Source of the DNA: Verrucomicrobiia bacterium
GTDB taxonomy: Bacteria > Verrucomicrobiota > Verrucomicrobiia > CAIQCK01
Direction: 5' to 3'
NCBI GenBank assembly: GCA_041667205.1
Contig: JBAYFL010000009.1
Location: 106,732 to 170,731, forward strand
DNA length: 64,000 bases
Position 1 is the first letter of the stretch, and the number at the start of each line of letters is the position of its first letter. Below the pieces are notes generated by a model that worked only from the letters and a program-made list of their open reading frames with translations, did no database searches and was not told the origin of the DNA. Made by a program: the position numbers and the translations under genes. Below are positions 2,994-23,968 of the stretch, piece after piece.

Positions 2994-4648
2994 GAATCTT
3001 TCGATGGTTAGCCTTTCTGGTTCTTACCTCATTCGTTCATTTCACGACTTGTGCCGCCGAATATGACCTCGTCGTCTATGGTGGCACGTCGGCGGGCGTG
3101 ATTGCCGCGGTGCAGGCGAAGAAGATGGGCAAGTCGGTCATCATCGTCTGCCCGGACAAACATCTCGGCGGACTCTCCAGCGGCGGGCTGGGGTTCACCG
3201 ACACGGGCAACAAGGCCGTCATCGGCGGTCTGTCCCGCGACTTCTATCATCGCGTCTGGAAGCATTACGACACGGCTGCGGCGTGGAAATGGCAGAAGAA
3301 GGCGGAATACGGTAACAAGGGGCAGGGGACGCCCGCCATTGACGGCGAGCAACGGACGATGTGGATTTTTGAGCCGCACGTGGCCGAGCGGGTCTTCGAG
3401 GATTACATCCGCGAGTTCAAGATTCCCGTCCGCCGCAACGAATGGCTCGACCGCGCCAAGGGCGTGAAGAAGGACGGCGCGCGCATCGTTTCGATCACGA
3501 CGCTGGGCCGGAAGACTTACGCGGGGAGGATGTTCATTGACGCCACCTACGAGGGCGACCTGATGGCCGCGGCGGGCGTGGATTATCACGTCGGGCGCGA
3601 GGCGCAGAGCGTTTATGGCGAGCAATGGAACGGTGTGCAGACCGGCGTGCTGCATCACCGGCATCATTTCGGCGCGCTGAAGACTCCCATCAGTCCCTAC
3701 ATTGTGCCGGGCGATCCGAAGAGCGGCGTGCTAGCGCGCATCAGCATCGAGCCACCGGGCGAGTTCGGCGCGGGCGACAAACGCGTGCAGGCCTACTGTT
3801 TCCGCATGTGCCTTACCGACGATCCGCGCAACCGCATCCCTTTCCCGAAGCCGAAGGGCTACAACGCGAAGCAATACGAACTGTTGTTGCGCGTCTTCGC
3901 GGCGGGCTGGCGCGAGACGTTCGAGAAGTTCGACCCGATCCCGAACCACAAGACCGACACGAACAACCACGGGCCGTTCAGCACCGACAACATCGGCCGC
4001 AACTACGATTACCCCGACGCGAGCTACGAGCGCCGGCGCGAGATTCTCCGCGAGCACGAGACCTACCAGAAAGGCTGGCTCTGGTTCATCGCCAACGATC
4101 CGCGCGTGCCGAAGGACGTGCAGGACGCCATGCGCCGATGGGGCCTGCCGAAGGATGAGTTCAAGGACAACGGCGGCTGGTCGCACCAGATCTACGTGCG
4201 CGAAGCGCGCCGGATGATCGGCAGCTACGTGATGACCGAGAACGAGCTGACGAAGAAGCGCCCGACGCCGGAGTCGGTCGGCATGGGCAGCTACACAATA
4301 GACTCGCACAACGTGCAGCGTTACATCATGCCCGAGGGCCACGTGCAGAACGAGGGCGACATCGGCGTCTCCACCAAAGGCCCCTACGAGATCGCCTACG
4401 GCTCGCTCGTGCCGAAGCGCGGCCAAGCCGACAACCTTCTTGTGCCCGTGTGCGTCTCCAGTTCGCACATTGCGTTCGGCAGCATCCGCATGGAACCGGT
4501 GTTCATGATCCTCGGCCAATCCGCCGCGACCGCCGCGTGCATGGCGCTGGATGCCGGCGCGCCGGTGCAGCAGGTGGATTACGCCAAGCTGCGCGAGCGG
4601 CTGCTGAAGGAAGGGCAGGTGCTGGGATGGAAGAAGAGCGAAAAGTAA
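2990..4648 (+). CDS. FAD-dependent oxidoreductase, tandem paralog of 1281-2993
   Basis: ATGA start/stop overlap with the previous gene. VVYGGTSAGVIAAVQAKKMG..HLGGLSSGGLG and colinear blocks (IDATYEGDLMAAAGV, QAYCFRMCLT, GWSHQIYVREARRM, SIRMEPVFM) match the upstream paralog. Confidence 0.8.
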   Translation: MRIFRWLAFLVLTSFVHFTTCAAEYDLVVYGGTSAGVIAAVQAKKMGKSVIIVCPDKHLGGLSSGGLGFTDTGNKAVIGGLSRDFYHRVWKHYDTAAAWKWQKKAEYGNKGQGTPAIDGEQRTMWIFEPHVAERVFEDYIREFKIPVRRNEWLDRAKGVKKDGARIVSITTLGRKTYAGRMFIDATYEGDLMAAAGVDYHVGREAQSVYGEQWNGVQTGVLHHRHHFGALKTPISPYIVPGDPKSGVLARISIEPPGEFGAGDKRVQAYCFRMCLTDDPRNRIPFPKPKGYNAKQYELLLRVFAAGWRETFEKFDPIPNHKTDTNNHGPFSTDNIGRNYDYPDASYERRREILREHETYQKGWLWFIANDPRVPKDVQDAMRRWGLPKDEFKDNGGWSHQIYVREARRMIGSYVMTENELTKKRPTPESVGMGSYTIDSHNVQRYIMPEGHVQNEGDIGVSTKGPYEIAYGSLVPKRGQADNLLVPVCVSSSHIAFGSIRMEPVFMILGQSAATAACMALDAGAPVQQVDYAKLRERLLKEGQVLGWKKSEK

Positions 4649-16021: not shown

Positions 16022-17383
16022 ATGAACAACCAGAACCACTCCCCCATCCACACCGCTTCCTCCATCTCCCGCCGCAGCTTCCTCCGCTGCGCGACGGTCG
16101 CGACCTTCGCCTTCCAGATCGTGCCGCGCTCCGTCCTCGGCCGGGGCGTCATCCCGCCGAGCGAGAAGCTCAACGTCGCGGGCATCGGCATCGGCGGGCA
16201 GGGTGGGGGAGTGTTGCGCGACCCGGCCGTCTCCAGCCAGAACATCGTCGCCCTCTGCGACGTGGATTGGAAATACGCCGAGCGCACCGCCAAGACCTTT
16301 CCCAACGCCGAGCGCTTCACCGACTACCGTGTCATGCTGGAGAAGCTCAAGAGCGTGGACGCTGTCGTCATCGGCACGCCCGACCACATGCACGCGCCCA
16401 TCACCATGGCGGCGTTGCGCGCCGGCAAACACGTCTATGTCGAGAAACCGATGGCCCACTCCATCGAGGAGGCGCGCGTCATGACCCGCATGGCCAGGAA
16501 GACCGGCCTCGTCACCCAGATGGGCAACAACGGCCACGCCAGCGAGGGCCTGCGCCTCACCTACGAATGGATTCATGCCGGCGCCATCGGCACCGTCAAG
16601 GAAGTCCATTGCTGGAGCGACCGTCCCGGCAAGTTCTGGACGCAAGACCTCGACCGCCCCACCGACACGCCGCCCGTTCCCGAGAAGCTCGACTGGAACC
16701 TCTGGCTCGGCGCAGCCCCGGAGCGGCCGTATCATCCCTGTTACCTTCCGAGGACCTGGCGCGGCTGGTTCGACTTCGGCACCGGCGCAATGGGCGACAT
16801 GGCCATCCACAACATGGATCCTGCCTTCTTCGCCCTCGACCTCGGCGCGCCCGTCGCCGCCGAATGCCAGAGCAGCCCGCTCAAGAAGGAATCTTATCCC
16901 TTGTGGCAGATCATCACCTACGAGTTTGCCGCCAAGAGCCGGCGTCCCGCCCTCAAGCTCTACTGGTATGACGGCGGCAAGAAACCCGCCCGCCCCGCCG
17001 ACCTCGAAGCCGGCCGCGAGCTGGACGACAACGGCATCCTCTTCATCGGCGACAAAGGCTCCATGCTCTGCGGCGGCTGGTGCGGCGCGCCGCGGTTGCT
17101 GCCGGAGAGCCGGATGCAGGACTTCAAGCGTCCGCCCAAGACCCTCCCGCGCTCCGTCGGCCATCGCGCCGAATGGGTCGAGGCCTGCAAAGCCCGCAAG
17201 CCCCAGAACGCCAAGGCCGGCTTTGCCTACTCCGGTCCCTACACCGAGGCGCTGCTCGTGGGCAACCTCGCCACGCGCCTTCAGAAGCGGATCGAATGGG
17301 ACACCGCCAAGATGCGCGCCAAGAATTGCCCCGAAGCCGACGCCCTCATCCGCAAACATTACCGCGACGGGTTTGGGATTTAG
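16022..17383 (+). CDS. Gfo/Idh/MocA family oxidoreductase, TAT signal
   Basis: ATG 16022 is preferred because the listed GTG 15971 abuts the REPIN. SISRRSFLRCATVATFA, NVAGIGIGGQGG, VYVEKPMAHS. It is a paralog of 55286-56695. Confidence 0.8.
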   Translation: MNNQNHSPIHTASSISRRSFLRCATVATFAFQIVPRSVLGRGVIPPSEKLNVAGIGIGGQGGGVLRDPAVSSQNIVALCDVDWKYAERTAKTFPNAERFTDYRVMLEKLKSVDAVVIGTPDHMHAPITMAALRAGKHVYVEKPMAHSIEEARVMTRMARKTGLVTQMGNNGHASEGLRLTYEWIHAGAIGTVKEVHCWSDRPGKFWTQDLDRPTDTPPVPEKLDWNLWLGAAPERPYHPCYLPRTWRGWFDFGTGAMGDMAIHNMDPAFFALDLGAPVAAECQSSPLKKESYPLWQIITYEFAAKSRRPALKLYWYDGGKKPARPADLEAGRELDDNGILFIGDKGSMLCGGWCGAPRLLPESRMQDFKRPPKTLPRSVGHRAEWVEACKARKPQNAKAGFAYSGPYTEALLVGNLATRLQKRIEWDTAKMRAKNCPEADALIRKHYRDGFGI

Positions 17384-17431
17384 TGGAAGCGTTCCGCCGC
17401 GATTTAGCGTTTTCGTATTGGCTGAGGTTTT

Positions 17432-18205
17432 ATGAATAGATTGCTCTGGACGCAAACGATAAGCAAAAAATCTTCGCCTCCATGGCCATGTTCTTCTTGC
17501 CGAGAGGGCACATTCAGACTTGTGCCTGGATCCTTGATCTATCAGGAAACCGTCTGGTCGAAGCGCGCAAGGAATCATGAGGAGTGGGATCCGGATTGGA
17601 TCACCTTTTCCTTCACAGCTTGGGTCAAGTGCGACAATTCAGCTTGTGGTGAAGAAGTTGCGGTAGCTGGAGACGGAGGAATCGAGACAGATTACGATGA
17701 TGAGGGTGCGGGATCATTTCATGCAGAATATTGTTCCCCGCGATTCTGTTCGCCAATGCCTGACATTATCGAAATACCTGGGAATTGTCCGCCTAAAGTA
17801 GCTTCTGAGTTGCGCGTAGCTTTCGCATTATTCTGGTCTGACCCGTCAGGGGCTGCAAACCACATTCGCGTTGCATTGGAGGCTCTAATGAGTCATTTGC
17901 GAATTCGAGAACGTCGCAAGACCGACAAAGGCAAGTTTGTGAAGCTCAACCTTCATCAGCGCATTGAGTTGTTTCGCGAGGCCGACCTGATTATTGGTAA
18001 TCAACTTATGGCCCTCAAGTGGTTGGGCAATACGGGTAGTCATGATGGGGGCGTGATTCAAAACGACGTTCTAGCCGCGTTCGAGATAATCGAGCACGCT
18101 CTTCTTGAGCTAATTGAGCAGCGATCGAAGAGACTCGCGGCCTTAGCCTCCGGACTTGAGAAGAAGCACCGTCCCGGCGCAAAAAAGCACAAACTGCCTT
18201 TCTAA
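17432..18205 (+). CDS. zinc-ribbon + DUF4145-like domain protein (AT-rich islet)
   Basis: Visibly lower GC than the flanks. N-terminal CSSC...CDNSAC four-Cys pattern. The C-terminal block IRVALEALMSHL...LHQRIELF...LMALKWLGNTGSHDG resembles the DUF4145 signature (..R..E..l....L...I..L......lR..GN...H). Confidence 0.6.
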   Translation: MNRLLWTQTISKKSSPPWPCSSCREGTFRLVPGSLIYQETVWSKRARNHEEWDPDWITFSFTAWVKCDNSACGEEVAVAGDGGIETDYDDEGAGSFHAEYCSPRFCSPMPDIIEIPGNCPPKVASELRVAFALFWSDPSGAANHIRVALEALMSHLRIRERRKTDKGKFVKLNLHQRIELFREADLIIGNQLMALKWLGNTGSHDGGVIQNDVLAAFEIIEHALLELIEQRSKRLAALASGLEKKHRPGAKKHKLPF

Positions 18206-18434
18206 GTGTGGGGCAGAGCAAATAACCCTATGCTCTCGCTCCTCCTGTCCATGGAATCGAGACAACCTCATTAAGCAAAGGGGCGAAGACGCGAAGGGGG
18301 CATGTGACGCCAACGATGAGCAGGGCGCAACGAAAACGAAAGGCTGGTGTTTGCATCTGGCGGTGTGGTAGTAAACAACCGAGCTGCAAGATGTGGTGCG
18401 CGGCTGGACAAGGACGTGTCAGGAGCTAAACGAG

Positions 18435-18794
18435 ATGGCTGAGACAAATCCAGGACGTGGAAAGAGCCGGGTAGGGTTGCCGGCGGTGGGAGTAACGCCG
18501 ATGGCTGGCACGAACCCGGCACGAGGTAAAAGCAGGGTGGGACTGCCGGCATTGGGCGTAACGCAGGCGGCTGACTCAACCGCAGGACGTGGCAAGAGCA
18601 GGGTGGGATTGCCGGCGGTGGGGACTTTTCCAGGATCGAAGAGCTGCCGCGCCCGACGTTACGGAAAAGGGACTCATGTGGAATGTCTCGCGCCTCCCGC
18701 CGAAGGCTGCGATTTCGCGGCGCCCACCGGCACGGGCATCCTGTGCATTCATCCGAAGCGTCTGGACATCGTGACGCGTTCTGAAGCGGGTTGA
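18435..18794 (+). CDS. small protein with three tandem 22-aa modules (core RGKSRVGLPAxG) and Cys-containing tail
   Basis: ATG at 18435 lies 9 nt after AGGAG (18421-18425). The differences between modules are overwhelmingly synonymous in this frame only (see findings). I recognise no family. Confidence 0.55.
   Translation: MAETNPGRGKSRVGLPAVGVTPMAGTNPARGKSRVGLPALGVTQAADSTAGRGKSRVGLPAVGTFPGSKSCRARRYGKGTHVECLAPPAEGCDFAAPTGTGILCIHPKRLDIVTRSEAG
18447..18623 (+). repeat. three 66-bp tandem repeats (coding)
   Basis: The repeat period is exactly 66 nt, with module cores starting at 18453, 18519 and 18585. Copies are roughly 76-87% identical at DNA level over the stretches I aligned by eye but nearly identical as peptide. 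Confidence 0.8.
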
Positions 18795-18887
18795 GGCGGC
18801 GGGGCGCAGGTCTGAAGATGCGGTTCTGCGTGCTGGCGTAAAGAAGTTGTTTCTTCGCGGGCCGGTTCCTGACAGAATCCGGTCACC

Positions 18888-20543
18888 ATGAAGACAAGAG
18901 CCGCCATCATCCTGTGCGCGTGCCTCGCCTGGGCCGCGCTCTTCACTGCCTCCACCGCTAACGCCGCCGCGCCGAAGCCGAACATCGTCTATGTCCTTTG
19001 CGATGACCTCGGCTACGGCGACCTGCATTGTCTCAACCCCAAGGGCAAGATCGCCACGCCGCACGCCGACAAGCTGGCGTCGCAAGGCATGATCTTCACC
19101 GACGCGCACAGCAGTTCGTCGGTTTGCTCGCCGACGCGCTACGGCGTCATGACCGGCCGCTACAACTGGCGCTCGCGGCTTCAGACCGGCGTCCTTGGCG
19201 GCCTCTCGCCGCGGCTCATTGAGCCGGGCCGGCTCACGGTGCCTGCGCTGCTCAAGAAGAGCGGCTACTACACCGCGTGCGTCGGCAAGTGGCACCTCGG
19301 CATGGATTGGGTGAAGAAGGAAGGCAAGGATGTCTCGGAACTGAACATCGAGAAAGCCGAGCAGGTCTGGAACGTGGACTACTCCAAGCCGGTCACCAAC
19401 GGCCCGAACAGCGTTGGCTTCGACTACTACTATGGCATCAGCGCCTCGCTCGACATGGTGCCCTATACGTTCATCGAGAACGACCGCGTCACCGTCGTGC
19501 CGACGGTGGACAAAGACTGGCCGTTGATGCCTGGTCGAGAGAAGAGCCGCTGCCGCAAAGGTCCCGCCACGCCGGAGTTTGAGGTCGAGCACGTCCTGCC
19601 GGCCTTCACGCGCAAGGCGGTGGAGATCATCGGTGTGCGCGCGGCTGACGCGAAGGCGTGCAAACCGTTCTTCCTTTACCTGCCGCTGAACGCGCCGCAC
19701 ACGCCGATCGCGCCGACAAAAGAGTGGCAGGGCAAGAGCGGTCTGAATCCCTATGCTGATTTCGTGATGCAGACGGACGCAACGCTCGGTGCGGTGATGG
19801 AGGCGTTGGAAAAGAACGGTCTCACAGAGAATACGCTGCTCATCTTCACCAGCGACAACGGCTGCTCGCCACAGGCGGATTTTTCCGCGTTGCTCGAGAA
19901 GGGGCACAACCCCAGCTACCAGTTCCGCGGCCACAAGGCGGACATCTGGGACGGCGGCCACCGCATCCCGTTCATCGCGCGCTGGCCCGGGAAAGTCCAG
20001 CCCGGCACTTCGAGCGAACAACTCGTCTGTCTCACTGACCTGATGGCCACGTGCGCGGCGATTCTCGGCGTAAAGCTGCCCGACAACGCGGGCGAGGACA
20101 GCGTGAGCATGATGATGGCGCTGCAGGGCACGCCAACGGACTTGTATACCGCGATGATCGGCACGCGCTCGACAGGTTGGCGCGAAACGGCGGTGCATCA
20201 CTCCATCAGCGGGAAGTTCTCCATTCGTGAGGGCCGGTGGAAACTGGAACTCTGCCCCGGTTCCGGCGGCTGGAGCACGCCGCGCGACCCGCAGGCGGTT
20301 CAGCAGGGGTTGCCGCAGGTGCAACTCTACGACATGGCTGGTGACGTCGGCGAGAAGGTGAACTTGGCGGACAAACGTCCCGACGTGGTCGGGCGGCTGA
20401 CGAAGTTGTTGGAGAAATACGTCGCCGACGGCCGCAGCACGCCCGGTGCTCCGCAGAAGAATACCGTGGAGGTGGAAATACGGAAGACCGACAAAGCGCA
20501 GCCCCCGGCGAAGAAGCAGGGAAAGCGGAAGGTCGTCAAGTAA
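18888..20543 (+). CDS. arylsulfatase-family sulfatase (Cys-type)
   Basis: Signal peptide, LCDDLGYGD, formylglycine motif CSPTRYGVMTGR, GKWHLG, PLNAPHTP, FTSDNG. Confidence 0.9.
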   Translation: MKTRAAIILCACLAWAALFTASTANAAAPKPNIVYVLCDDLGYGDLHCLNPKGKIATPHADKLASQGMIFTDAHSSSSVCSPTRYGVMTGRYNWRSRLQTGVLGGLSPRLIEPGRLTVPALLKKSGYYTACVGKWHLGMDWVKKEGKDVSELNIEKAEQVWNVDYSKPVTNGPNSVGFDYYYGISASLDMVPYTFIENDRVTVVPTVDKDWPLMPGREKSRCRKGPATPEFEVEHVLPAFTRKAVEIIGVRAADAKACKPFFLYLPLNAPHTPIAPTKEWQGKSGLNPYADFVMQTDATLGAVMEALEKNGLTENTLLIFTSDNGCSPQADFSALLEKGHNPSYQFRGHKADIWDGGHRIPFIARWPGKVQPGTSSEQLVCLTDLMATCAAILGVKLPDNAGEDSVSMMMALQGTPTDLYTAMIGTRSTGWRETAVHHSISGKFSIREGRWKLELCPGSGGWSTPRDPQAVQQGLPQVQLYDMAGDVGEKVNLADKRPDVVGRLTKLLEKYVADGRSTPGAPQKNTVEVEIRKTDKAQPPAKKQGKRKVVK

Positions 20544-20570
20544 TTGCGAGACGGCAACCAAGGCTTAACA

Positions 20571-22115
20571 ATGAAACTCCGACTTCAAACAATGGCGTTT
20601 GTGGCGCTGGCTGTGGTATTCGCCGGTGTCTGCGGTGGCGAGACTGCGTTCTCCTCGAAGCCGAACATCATCTTCATCCTCACCGACGACCAGGGCTACG
20701 GCGACGTGTCGGCGAACGGCAACCCGGTGCTCAAGACGCCGAACCTCGACCGGCTCCACAATGAAGGCGTGCGGTTTAGCGACTTCCACGTCAGTCCAAC
20801 CTGTTCGCCGACGCGCTCGGCGCTGCTGACCGGCCGGCACGAGTTTCGCAACGGCATCACGCATACCATCCTCGAACGCGAGCGGATGACATTGAAAGCA
20901 ACGACACTCGCGCAGGTGCTCAAGTCGGCGGGTTACACCACCGGCATCTTCGGCAAGTGGCACCTCGGCGACGAGGATGAGTATCAGCCAGACCGGCGTG
21001 GCTTCGACGAGGTCTTCATTCATGGCGGCGGCGGCATCGGGAACACCTATCCGGGCAGTTGCGGTGACGCGCCGGGCAACATGTATTTCAGCCCGGCCAT
21101 CAAGCACAACGGCAAGTTCGAGAAGACAAACGGCTATTGCACCGACGTGTTCTTTGGACAGGCGGCGAAGTGGATCGCGTCGGTGAAGGGCAGAAAGCCG
21201 TTCTACGCCTATATCCCGACCAACGCACCGCACGCGCCGCTTCAGGTCCGGCCGGAGGATGAGGCGCGATACGCCGGCAAGGTGCCGGAGAGCGCCGCGA
21301 AGTTCTTCGGCATGATCGCCAACATTGACGACAACGTTGGCAAGCTGCTCGCGAAGCTGGCCGAGTGGGGCATCGAGCGCGACACGCTCGTCGTCTTCAT
21401 GAACGACAACGGCGGCACCGGCGGCTGCAAGGTGTTCAACGCCGGGATGCGCGGCCAGAAAGGCACCGCATGGCTCGGCGGCACGCGCGCCTCCTCGTTC
21501 TGGCGCTGGCCCGGCACGTTCAAGCCCGCCACGGTGGACAAGCTCTGCGCGCACATTGACTTCTTCCCGACCATCGCCGAGATCGTGGGCGCGAAACTCA
21601 GCGACGACGTGAAGGCGCAGGTCGAGGGCCGCAGCCTCGTGCCGCTTCTGAAGGACGCCAGCGCGGTGTGGCCTGATCGTGTTCTCTTTACGCATCTCGG
21701 CCGCTGGCCAAAGGGAGCCGCGCCCGCCACCGGCAAATACTCCGTGTGCAGCGTCCGCAACACCCGCTGGCATCTCGTCTCCGCCGGCAAGGGTGGCGAG
21801 AAGAACTGGCAGCTTTTTGACGTGAAGGCTGACATCGGCGAGACGGCCGACGTGGCCGCGCATCAGCCCGATGTGATCAAGGAACTTGATGCGGCCTACG
21901 AGAAGTGGTGGAACTCGGTTCAACCGCAGCTCGTCAATGAGAACGCGACCGGCCCAAAGATCAATCCGTTCAAGGAGCAATACTGGAAACAATTCGGCGG
22001 TGGCCCCGACGAGGCGATGCTCAAGGAGATGGACCCCGCCGCCAATTCGTGGCGAGCCGGAGCAACCAAAGGTGGCAAGAAGGGCAAACGAGGCAAGACC
22101 GCGGAGGCGAAGTGA
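20571..22115 (+). CDS. sulfatase (Cys-type)
   Basis: ATG 20571 gives the signal MKLRLQTMAFVALAVVFAGV. LTDDQGYGD, CSPTRSALLTGR, GKWHLG, NAPHAP, MNDNGG. Confidence 0.9.
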   Translation: MKLRLQTMAFVALAVVFAGVCGGETAFSSKPNIIFILTDDQGYGDVSANGNPVLKTPNLDRLHNEGVRFSDFHVSPTCSPTRSALLTGRHEFRNGITHTILERERMTLKATTLAQVLKSAGYTTGIFGKWHLGDEDEYQPDRRGFDEVFIHGGGGIGNTYPGSCGDAPGNMYFSPAIKHNGKFEKTNGYCTDVFFGQAAKWIASVKGRKPFYAYIPTNAPHAPLQVRPEDEARYAGKVPESAAKFFGMIANIDDNVGKLLAKLAEWGIERDTLVVFMNDNGGTGGCKVFNAGMRGQKGTAWLGGTRASSFWRWPGTFKPATVDKLCAHIDFFPTIAEIVGAKLSDDVKAQVEGRSLVPLLKDASAVWPDRVLFTHLGRWPKGAAPATGKYSVCSVRNTRWHLVSAGKGGEKNWQLFDVKADIGETADVAAHQPDVIKELDAAYEKWWNSVQPQLVNENATGPKINPFKEQYWKQFGGGPDEAMLKEMDPAANSWRAGATKGGKKGKRGKTAEAK

Positions 22116-23968
22116 AACTGGCTTGCCTGTTCCTGTGCGCCGCGCTCGCTGCCGGCGCGTGTCATGCCGCGACGGCAAAGCCGAACGTCATCGTCATCCT
22201 GACGGACGACCAGGGCTACGGCGACTTTTCCTGTCACGACAATCCGGTGCTCAAAACGCCGCACCTCGACCGGCTCCATGACGAGAGCATCCGGTTCACG
22301 GACTTCCACTCCTCGCCGATGTGCACGCCGACGCGCGGGCAACTCATGACCGGCCGCGATGCGCTGGCCAATGGCGCAAGTTGCGTCTGCTCCGGGCGGA
22401 CGTTTGTGCGGCGCGAGGTGCCGACGATGGCGGAGTTGTTCGCAGCGGGCGGATACCAAACCGGGTTGTTTGGCAAGTGGCACCTCGGCGATAACTACCC
22501 GCACCGGCCCAACGACCGCGGATTTCACGAGGCGGTCTATCATCTTGGCTGGGGCATTACCTCCACACCGGATCATTGGGACAACGATTACTTCGACGAC
22601 TTCTTCCGCCACAACGGTCGCGTGGGGCAGTTCAATGGCTACTGCACGGACGTGTTTTTCGCCGAGGCGCAGCGGTGGATGAAGTCGTGCGCCGCCGAGG
22701 GCAAGCCGTTCCTCTGCTATCTCGCGCCGAACGCGCCGCACGGGCCGTTTTACGTCGCCGACAAATACAAGCGGCCCTACAAGCACCTTTCGCCCGATGT
22801 CGCCGGATTCTTCGGCATGATCGCCAACCTCGACGAGAACATTGGCCGGCTCGAAGCGATGCTGCGCGAGGCCGGCCTGCGCGAGAACACCATCCTCGTC
22901 TTCATGACCGACAACGGTGGCACGGGCGGCATCTCGGTATTCAACGCCGGGATGCGTGGCGCGAAGGCCAGCCTCTACGACGGCGGTCATCGGGTGCCGT
23001 GTTTCTTCCGCTGGCCTGCCGGTGGACTGCGGCCCGCCGGAGACGTGGCGGAGTTGGCGCAGGTGCAGGACATGCTGCCGACGTTGTTGGAGTTGTGTGA
23101 GGTAAACGTAGCCCACGACTCTGTCGCGGGATCGAAGATAAAAGATTCCCGCCACGGAGTGGCGAGCTACCGAGGCTTCGATGGTCTCAGTCTCGTGCCG
23201 GTGTTGCGTAGGAAGGAGCCGTCGGCGCTCGCGGAGCGGACGCTGGTGGTGCAATACAGCGGCCTGACGCAGAGCGATCCGGCGAAGTGGGACTCGGCTG
23301 TGCTTCGTGGCAACTGGCGCTTGGTCAAGGGCGAGAAGCTCTACGACATCAAGAGCGATCCGGCACAGAAGAGCGACGTGGCTGCCCAACATCCGGAGCT
23401 GGTGAAGGCGATGCGTGCTCACTACGAGAAGTGGTGGGCCGCTGTGCAATCGGGACTGCGCAAGTTCGAAACACTCGATGTTGGCTCGGATAGTGAGAAC
23501 CCCACCTGCCTGACTTCGATGGATTGGCTCGCGCCTCAGTTGACGCCTTGCTCCCAGCCGTTCGACGTGCGGCTGGCGGGCGAGACGTTGGTGAAGGAAG
23601 GTTCGCTGCCCGGCGGTCGGCCACAGCCGGTGATGAACGGTCCGTGGAACCTCCGCGTCACGCGCGACGGCGTCTATCGCATCAGTTTGTGGCGCTGGCC
23701 GCGTGAGGCGGATGCACGGCTGGCGGGCAGCGTGCCGGCTTACAAGGGCGTGGACGGCTCGTTTCCCGCAGGCAAGGCTTTGCCCATCGCCAAGGCGCGG
23801 CTGCGCATCGGTGGCTTCGACGCCACGACGCCGGTGAGCGCGTTGGACAAGGAGGCCGTGTTCGAGACGCGCCTGAAGACGGGAAAGACGCAATTGCAGA
23901 CATGGTTTTACGACGCGCAAGGTCGAGAGTTGTGCGGCGCTTTCTACGTCGAGGTGCTGCGAAAGTAA
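22112..23968 (+). CDS. sulfatase (Cys-type) with C-terminal extension and in-frame palindromic insert
   Basis: GTG 22112 overlaps the upstream stop (GTGA) and gives the signal VKLACLFLCAALAAGACHA. LTDDQGYGD, CTPTRGQLMTGR, GKWHLG, MTDNGG. An extra domain of about 200 aa follows the sulfatase core. Confidence 0.85.
   Translation: MKLACLFLCAALAAGACHAATAKPNVIVILTDDQGYGDFSCHDNPVLKTPHLDRLHDESIRFTDFHSSPMCTPTRGQLMTGRDALANGASCVCSGRTFVRREVPTMAELFAAGGYQTGLFGKWHLGDNYPHRPNDRGFHEAVYHLGWGITSTPDHWDNDYFDDFFRHNGRVGQFNGYCTDVFFAEAQRWMKSCAAEGKPFLCYLAPNAPHGPFYVADKYKRPYKHLSPDVAGFFGMIANLDENIGRLEAMLREAGLRENTILVFMTDNGGTGGISVFNAGMRGAKASLYDGGHRVPCFFRWPAGGLRPAGDVAELAQVQDMLPTLLELCEVNVAHDSVAGSKIKDSRHGVASYRGFDGLSLVPVLRRKEPSALAERTLVVQYSGLTQSDPAKWDSAVLRGNWRLVKGEKLYDIKSDPAQKSDVAAQHPELVKAMRAHYEKWWAAVQSGLRKFETLDVGSDSENPTCLTSMDWLAPQLTPCSQPFDVRLAGETLVKEGSLPGGRPQPVMNGPWNLRVTRDGVYRISLWRWPREADARLAGSVPAYKGVDGSFPAGKALPIAKARLRIGGFDATTPVSALDKEAVFETRLKTGKTQLQTWFYDAQGRELCGAFYVEVLRK
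23108..23170. repeat. REPIN-like element inside sulfatase CDS, in frame
   Basis: GTAGCCCACGACTCTGTCGCGGGA-15 nt-TCCCGCCACGGAGTGGCGAGCTAC belongs to the same family as 15908-15967. It is 63 bp (21 codons) and is read as VAHDSVAGSKIKDSRHGVASY. Confidence 0.7.

Follow-up and report, generated by a model that had tools for sequence, protein, structure and literature searches.

A repeat-bearing member of an unannotated family of small four-cysteine proteins in a Verrucomicrobiia bacterium

Introduction

Does a short open reading frame (ORF) that consists in large part of an internal tandem repeat encode a real protein, and if so, what might the protein do? This question is raised by a 119-residue ORF in DNA from a Verrucomicrobiia bacterium (assembly GCA_041667205.1, contig JBAYFL010000009.1, positions 106,732-170,731 of the forward strand), a stretch of 64,000 nucleotides (nt) hereafter called the window. 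The ORF opens with three 22-residue modules and closes with a domain that contains four cysteines (the Cys4 domain), and it lies downstream of a gene encoding a DUF4145 protein. A first-pass annotation, prepared from the sequence alone, had described the modules as a translated repeat under purifying selection and had suggested that the product could be a multi-core precursor-like peptide or a multivalent ligand.

Here we report that the gene product belongs to an uncharacterized family of small Cys4 proteins, in which it represents a lineage-specific variant with an added repeat. We regard the gene and its two-part anatomy as nearly certain; the mechanism that we propose for its product is tentative. 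For the composite of a real gene, this anatomy and a function as adaptor or regulator, we estimate a probability of about 0.5. A short ORF with an internal repeat is in this case a real gene, and it reveals a sizeable family of small four-Cys proteins outside the domain databases, with at least 139 clusters at 50% identity that derive mostly from environmental Verrucomicrobia-type genomes.

Results

The modules are a translated repeat

Tandem Repeats Finder reported one array at 18429-18622 (period 66, 3.0 copies, 73% matches), and a repeat search located three 66-nt copies, in register and 73-74% identical, at 18434-18631, in agreement with the exact 66-nt period claimed in the first-pass annotation. 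A degenerate pattern for the motif core found exactly these three copies in the 64-kb window and had no match in 100 shuffles. The codon counts given earlier also proved exact: over 13 codons, modules 1 and 3 differ at five positions, all five synonymous, and over 17 codons modules 1 and 2 show 11 synonymous and two replacement differences (G to A and V to L). Likewise, the start codon with its AGGAG 9 nt upstream, the length of the ORF and the four-Cys tail are as described, and both observations on competing frames are real, namely a TAG within module 1 in another forward frame and a reverse-strand ORF (18271-18579) whose peptide does not repeat.

A formal frame test was performed on codons 5-19, with differences summed over the three module pairs and scored in all six frames. 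The ORF frame yielded 22 synonymous and 10 replacement differences, compared with 0-9 synonymous and 18-28 replacement differences in the other five. When the same number of differences was placed at random in 20,000 trials per module pair, the observed synonymous count was reached in 0 of 20,000 trials for pair 1-2, and the corresponding P values for pairs 1-3 and 2-3 were 0.016 and 0.009, a pattern well beyond chance. A synonymous excess confined to one frame, an ORF that remains open in relatives and a low ratio of nonsynonymous to synonymous substitution rates (dN/dS) together establish the modules as a translated repeat under purifying selection.

Orthologues preserve the frame and the modules

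A protein search returned 12 homologous clusters at 68-90% identity, all unnamed or annotated as 'hypothetical', with the named ones originating from Verrucomicrobia metagenome-assembled genomes (MAGs). In a scan of one genome per species across 185,579 species, the clade was confined to five Verrucomicrobia MAGs that derive from groundwater and lakes. The organism carrying the window is itself from a groundwater metagenome, and the DNA runs that contain the sequence are groundwater and lake metagenomes. At nine of nine distinct orthologous DNA loci the frame is open, and the AGGAG and the M-[AS]-E-[TA]-N-P-G-R-G start are retained; a search for frameshifts or stops in these relatives found none, and the ORF is likewise intact in the 12 protein clusters. 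Pairwise dN/dS across orthologues is 0.08-0.20, with dS ranging up to saturation, and together with the frame-specific synonymous excess these values bear out the purifying selection proposed in the first-pass annotation. The C-terminal Cys4 domain is the most constrained part of the protein (dN/dS 0.03-0.13), with residues 67-119 almost invariant within the clade, and the motif cores give 0.09-0.38 when compared orthologue to orthologue.

We also looked for the repeat in non-coding DNA, and it is not scattered there. A degenerate DNA pattern for RGKSRVGLP retrieved 68 loci from metagenome contigs, 66 of them single chance matches and the other two (L035 and L086) members of the family; the pattern was too loose, and many of the chance matches came from an out-of-frame stretch of one conserved gene.

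Module number varies from one (P0011-P0012) to two (P0006-P0010, L011-L013 and L035) to three (the window, P0001-P0005 and L009), and every difference in length between orthologues is in frame and in whole-module steps. Modules at the same position in different three-module genomes share 82-89% DNA identity, versus 64-74% for sister modules within one genome. For the window, module 1 is 85-88% identical to module 1 of L001 and L009 and 71-74% identical to its own sisters, with modules 2 and 3 matching their positional counterparts in the same two loci at 82-89% and 82-88%, respectively. Since modules match by position between genomes, the triplication predates these species and has not been followed by concerted evolution. 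Module 2 begins with Met-Ala-Gly, and the retained ATG indicates that the duplicated unit took in the start codon. Sister modules have diverged almost to saturation at synonymous sites (dS 0.6-2), yet dN is only 0-0.2, which implies that each module has been kept by selection, and the R-G-K-S of the domain-adjacent module (module 3 in the window) is invariant in 13 of 13 aligned proteins. Overall, the gene is real, every one of its modules is under purifying selection, and the triplication is old.

The C-terminal domain defines an unannotated Cys4 family

The C-terminal domain of the window protein carries the signature C71-x12-C84-x7-C92-x11-C104-I-H106-P107. A profile built from the window clade and searched against 1.84 billion representative proteins retrieved 139 clusters (50% identity) at E<1e-3, nearly all with lengths of 60-110 residues and with a match confined to the C-terminal part. 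A second search with a broad profile added 113 more clusters at 90% identity; the named proteins among them are all 'hypothetical', and Pfam domains are absent throughout. Members share the signature C-x12-C-x7-C-x11-C-x-H-P, in which the four Cys are invariant, and 106 of 109 show exactly this spacing. Assignment of the window protein to this family is not circular, because the match to window residues 64-117 (44.3 bits, E=7.8e-7, Z=1.84e9) persists when a hidden Markov model (HMM) is built solely from 98 members that lie outside the RGKS clade. The window protein thus belongs to an unannotated Cys4 family whose domain occurs in more than 100 clusters that lack the module.

Typical members are about 75 residues long, and a PFGYAF hairpin of the family corresponds to PTGTG in the window clade. 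Stand-alone examples such as the Verrucomicrobia MAG proteins NT105_16295 and HZA90_20100 have the same Cys spacing and the same predicted hairpin-hairpin-helix fold, to which the window clade adds one to three basic NPGRGKSRVGLPA modules (isoelectric point, pI, about 10). The window product itself is basic, with a pI of 10.4 and a net charge of about +9.6, of which the modules contribute about +6.5. N-terminal regions are unrelated across the family. A REC receiver domain precedes the Cys4 domain in P0024 (Pfam 4.9e-18) and a PilZ domain does so in P0103 (5.3e-10), and P0016, P0033 and P0048 contain the Cys4 domain in two or three tandem copies. The fusions and tandem copies suggest that the Cys4 domain may act as an effector or output module in signalling. 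With an N-terminus that varies and a Cys4 domain that stays constant, the latter would be the effector or docking module and the former a variable input or specificity part. No paralogue of the Cys4 domain was found in a six-frame translation of the window.

One subfamily of about 74-75 residues (L015, L018, L019 and L020) has a conserved genomic position, between a divergent gene for a luciferase-like monooxygenase and a convergent amidohydrolase gene, with a gene for a large Fer4/Pyr_redox_2 oxidoreductase after the amidohydrolase gene. At these four loci a canonical TTGAGC-N17-TATACT promoter lies about 60 nt upstream of the Cys4 gene.

Structure prediction and database searches

AlphaFold run with a shallow 13-sequence alignment gave an uninformative model (predicted local distance difference test, pLDDT, 47). 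With 110 sequences, the Cys4 domain was modeled at pLDDT 70-79 as two beta-hairpins, each bracketed by two Cys, followed by a C-terminal helix. The modules were predicted to be disordered in both runs, with pLDDT below 50. No match for the 119-residue protein was obtained from Pfam (E<=1), NCBIfam, PHROGs or PADLOC, and a Pfam scan of 115 family members produced scattered single matches below threshold, among them PF24623 (Phage_zn_bind_8) in 1 of 115 members (E=0.019, 15 bits versus a cut-off of 24). Sequence searches of the PDB with two profiles returned 0 matches at E<=10, Foldseek matches in PDB and BFVD did not rise above noise (best E 1.7-3.6, template modeling score about 0.2), and a scan of viral contigs with the family alignment had no match.

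Discussion

A possible adaptor or regulator with a multivalent arm

What might such a protein do? Our best guess keeps one half of the functional suggestion in the first-pass annotation, the multivalent ligand, here understood as a disordered arm that displays one short binding motif several times. The product would be a small cytoplasmic adaptor or regulator. Its Cys4 domain (about 50 residues) would hold a structural metal ion, with zinc as the default guess given the invariant Cys and the cytoplasmic location, and would dock onto a conserved cellular partner. The disordered, strongly basic arm would supply lineage-specific binding through one to three copies of the 13-residue motif, and its target may be polyanionic or oligomeric, such as nucleic acid or an acidic or repeated protein surface. 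Binding of this kind would be multivalent and avidity-based, with motif copy number tuning its strength. We hold this mechanism only tentatively, at somewhat less than even odds. The natural series of one, two and three copies of the motif provides a ready-made experiment on valency versus binding, and the practical significance of the gene is modest until a partner or phenotype is known.

Short basic arms that bind the minor groove or RNA are familiar from the AT-hook (PF02178), from RGG-type motifs and from the SGRGK N-termini of histones H4 and H2A. The window arm has in common with them a short motif rich in Gly, Pro, Arg and Lys, a disordered segment and tandem repetition, through which weak contacts could sum. 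It differs in that the GRP core of the AT-hook (R-G-R-P) is absent from the window motif P-G-R-G-K-S-R-V-G-L-P, which has no Pfam match at E<=1, and in that the hydrophobic half of the motif (VGLPA) is without counterpart. The predicted Cys4 fold similarly recalls small zinc-ribbon and treble-clef proteins, which also combine a small four-Cys domain with beta-hairpins and a helix. A classical zinc ribbon, however, has two CxxC (or CxxH) knuckles, whereas the window family has no CxxC pair and each Cys stands alone. In a bolder version, the Cys4 domain would be an unrecognized signalling-output or docking domain that occurs behind REC and PilZ domains and alone, to which a Verrucomicrobial clade added arms resembling histone tails or AT-hooks; the invariant R-G-K-S would bind DNA or RNA multivalently, perhaps switched by modification of its invariant Ser or Lys. 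We consider this version improbable, at roughly one chance in eight or so; if true, such proteins would form a new class of small regulators associated with the nucleoid or with RNA.

Several observations weigh against the adaptor or regulator that we prefer. A look-up of RNA-seq data found no RNA runs that contain the sequence. The window clade has a median pI of 9.8 and an N-terminal charge of +5.5, compared with a median pI of 5.5 and an N-terminal charge of -2.5 in the rest of the family; with most of the family acidic, nucleic-acid binding cannot be a family-wide property. The fusions to REC and PilZ are single clusters each. In L089, modules 2 and 3 are drifting (NPARSKSRVGLTA and GSSRGKSRTGLPA), which indicates that three copies are not strictly required. 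The 110-sequence model reaches a mean pLDDT of 65 and thus moderate confidence only. Finally, the searches revealed no similarity to any characterized protein or fold, and the proposed function is drawn from architecture and composition.

Alternative explanations

The other half of the earlier functional suggestion, a multi-core precursor, would have the modules cut out as core peptides of a ribosomally synthesized and post-translationally modified peptide (RiPP) or of a signalling peptide, with the Cys-rich tail as follower or recognition domain. Tandem near-identical modules in a small ORF, variable linkers and a copy number that differs between relatives do recall multi-core precursors of the cyanobactin or microviridin type, but the resemblance is superficial. 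About ten genomic contexts were compared, and in none is a neighboring gene for a modifying enzyme, protease or transporter conserved. The 119-residue protein lacks a signal peptide, a leader and a double-glycine site, and its first module begins at Met1, so that a leader would have no place. Moreover, the supposed follower is an autonomous domain that is more constrained than the cores and is present without modules elsewhere, and we therefore regard a precursor as very improbable. A non-coding repeat, either a degenerate CRISPR-like array or a ToxI-like RNA antitoxin of the DUF4145 gene product as a HEPN-type RNase, was attractive for a 66-nt tandem array directly downstream of a predicted HEPN-family RNase gene. 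This explanation is effectively refuted. Differences fall at third codon positions in one frame only, and at nine orthologous loci the array is joined to the Cys4 domain in the same reading frame, with no DUF4145 gene beside it at any of the loci inspected for neighbors. RNA folding is no better than shuffled (z = -0.6 and -0.9 for the two strands), there is no Rfam match apart from one chance match inside the DUF4145 gene (17300-19000, E<=10), and the motif DNA is not dispersed in metagenome contigs. In comparison with type III toxin-antitoxin systems of the ToxIN kind, the window repeat is coding, lies downstream rather than upstream of the HEPN-like gene, is kept in relatives that lack that gene and shows no unusual RNA folding; proteins of the RAZR type, to which the DUF4145 product is related below, also act as single-gene systems (PMC13017515).

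Two further explanations accept the gene and dispute its function. Modules that are merely a tolerated expansion of a disordered N-terminus would fit the copy number of one to three, the decay of modules 2 and 3 in L089 and the plastic termini apparent from loss of the C-terminal tail (below). Against such neutrality, the low dN/dS of the cores, sister modules that keep almost the same 13 residues despite near-saturated synonymous sites and the invariant R-G-K-S are difficult to reconcile with a neutral disordered segment, which would have diverged at the protein level, and we judge neutrality quite unlikely. A redox or iron-sulfur (Fe-S) sensor is also unlikely, although we would give it somewhat more credence. 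Here the four Cys would ligate an Fe-S cluster or pair in reversible disulfides, and the protein would be a small regulator that responds to stress, with the basic arm contacting DNA by a WhiB-like logic. The Wbl proteins of Actinobacteria are small and cytoplasmic, with four invariant Cys (C-x14-22-C-x2-C-x5-C), a G[VI]WGG turn, a basic tail that contacts nucleic acid and stand-alone genes. The window protein resembles them in size, cytoplasmic location, invariant Cys, basic tail and stand-alone gene, and the absence of CxxC zinc knuckles also favors a sensor, as does a two-block conserved upstream element that is not sigma-70-like and could mean an alternative sigma factor or a dedicated regulator. 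In contrast, the Cys spacing of 12/7/11 is not the Wbl pattern, GVWGG is absent, the tail is N-terminal and repeated, the phylum differs, and no similarity in sequence or fold was found. No redox genes are consistently adjacent, and Fe-S and Zn are inseparable on present data.

Gene boundaries and upstream element

Coordinates of the gene and associated features are collected in Table 1. The AGGAG is kept at the same place in eight of eight aligned orthologous upstream regions. A start at GTG 18393 was considered and rejected: L001 and other orthologues carry a 1-nt indel between a conserved upstream block and the ATG, so the stretch upstream of the ATG is non-coding and translation starts at ATG 18435. 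At the other end, codon-by-codon comparison revealed that L001, L004, L090 and L086 read TGG, followed by G(D/G)GAQ(V/A/T) and a stop, where the window has TGA. The 7-residue tail has also been lost in L009, L011, L012 and L013, via different stops, and its repeated loss by different mutations indicates that the last seven residues are dispensable.

Table 1. Features of the small gene and of the adjacent DUF4145 gene (window coordinates)
Feature	Position	Strand	Description
DUF4145 gene	17432-18205	+	257 residues; N-terminal Cys-rich region and C-terminal DUF4145 (Pfam 1.5e-15)
Conserved 26-nt element	18327-18352	+	GCAACGAAAACGAAAGGCTGGTGTTT; candidate promoter/operator; holds the perfect direct repeat ACGAAA-ACGAAA
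Shine-Dalgarno sequence	18421-18425	+	AGGAG; 9-nt spacer to ATG 18435
Coding sequence	18435-18794	+	119 residues plus stop; ATG 18435, TGA 18792-18794
Module 1	18435-18500	+	Residues 1-22, MAETNPGRGKSRVGLPAVGVTP; motif core NPGRGKSRVGLPA at 18447-18485
Module 2	18501-18566	+	Residues 23-44, MAGTNPARGKSRVGLPALGVTQ; retains a copy of the ATG
Module 3	18567-18632	+	Residues 45-66, AADSTAGRGKSRVGLPAVGTFP
Example tryptic peptide across a module junction			VGLPAVGVTPMAGTNPAR
Cys4 domain	18633-18791	+	Residues 67-119, SCRARRYGKGTHVECLAPPAEGCDFAAPTGTGILCIHPKRLDIV...
Cys71	18645-18647	+	
Cys84	18684-18686	+	
Cys92	18708-18710	+	
Cys104	18744-18746	+	
His106	18750-18752	+	
Stop and tail relic	18792-18815	+	TGA replaces ancestral Trp TGG; then GGGAQV, old stop 18813-18815

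A second in-frame ATG (18501) opens module 2 and is preceded 8-9 nt upstream by GGGAG, which arises from the codons GTG GGA GTA (18488-18503, forward strand). Initiation at this site would yield a two-module isoform. The ATG is probably a relic of the duplication, since it is not conserved in L089 or L090.

The 26-nt element, conserved upstream of every orthologue, may serve as a promoter or an operator. Each of 13 family loci has a single match to the pattern GCAAC-N3-AACG-N4-GCTGGTGTTT, invariably at a distance of 78-107 nt from the ATG on its upstream side, and L035 carries a close variant of the element. Conservation of the element, which is present as a single copy in the window, exceeds that of the gene's synonymous sites; it is kept even in L004, whose synonymous sites are saturated versus those of the window. 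Thirteen nt after the element, a conserved TG-N-TA-N3-A stretch (TGGTA(G/A)NAA) resembles an extended -10. A possible reading is a promoter of the extracytoplasmic function (ECF) sigma factor type, with GCAAC-N17-GTTT as its two blocks. Readings as a sigma-70 or sigma-54 promoter were rejected on the basis of unfit spacing and hexamers, and a scan found no sigma-70 site on this strand. A conserved RNA structure in the 5' untranslated region was likewise rejected (-5.6 kcal/mol, no covarying pair).

The DUF4145 gene and genomic neighborhood

The first-pass annotation had joined the small ORF and the DUF4145-like gene in an islet of about 1.5 kb and had pointed to their synteny as a check. Neither part of this picture survives comparison. 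The low-GC islet (49-54%, with flanks at 62-68%) covers the DUF4145 gene only, the small ORF having a GC content of 61-64% like its surroundings, and the DUF4145 gene is absent beside the small gene in all inspected orthologous loci. It is a variable insertion and therefore forms no functional unit with the small gene. Its product matches phrog_1305 over the full length (5e-18) and, weakly, the PADLOC model PD-T7-4 (9.5e-4). PD-T7-4 is RAZR, a single-gene, ring-activated abortive-infection RNase with zinc-finger and DUF4145/HEPN domains (PMC13017515). The region of the catalytic motif reads ALKWLGNTGSH in the window protein, a K-x7-H arrangement, where RAZR has R146-x7-H154. These similarities suggest that the DUF4145 gene is probably a single-gene defense insertion.

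Upstream of the small gene, a GFO/IDH/MocA oxidoreductase gene is present in relatives too, with differing cargo in between: the interval is shortest in the window (1.05 kb), measures 2.2 kb in L009 and 3.5 kb in L011, and reaches 4.7 kb in L001, where it contains four genes. Downstream, a convergent gene for a UvrD-like helicase directly follows the small gene in L009 and in the distant L004; in the window, sulfatase genes (18888-20543 and 20544-22115) stand in between, with weak helicase-like matches near 23.7-24.3 kb. The small gene thus occupies a conserved chromosomal position whose flanks (17384-18434 and 18795-23700 in the window, and the corresponding regions of L001, L009 and L011) are insertion hot spots. 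Across about ten family contexts the neighbors differ and include genes for an oxidoreductase, esterase, aminotransferase, UvrD-like helicase, sulfatase, luciferase-like monooxygenase, amidohydrolase, histidine kinase and ceramidase. The small gene stands alone and is monocistronic, with a long upstream intergenic region.

Elsewhere in the window, the motif search picked up chance near-matches in two near-identical 26-mers, GCAGCATCCGCATGGA[G/A]CCGGTGTTC, at 2824-2849 and 4479-4504 of the forward strand. Their spacing of 1.65 kb and near-identity suggest neighboring paralogous genes or a duplicated segment.

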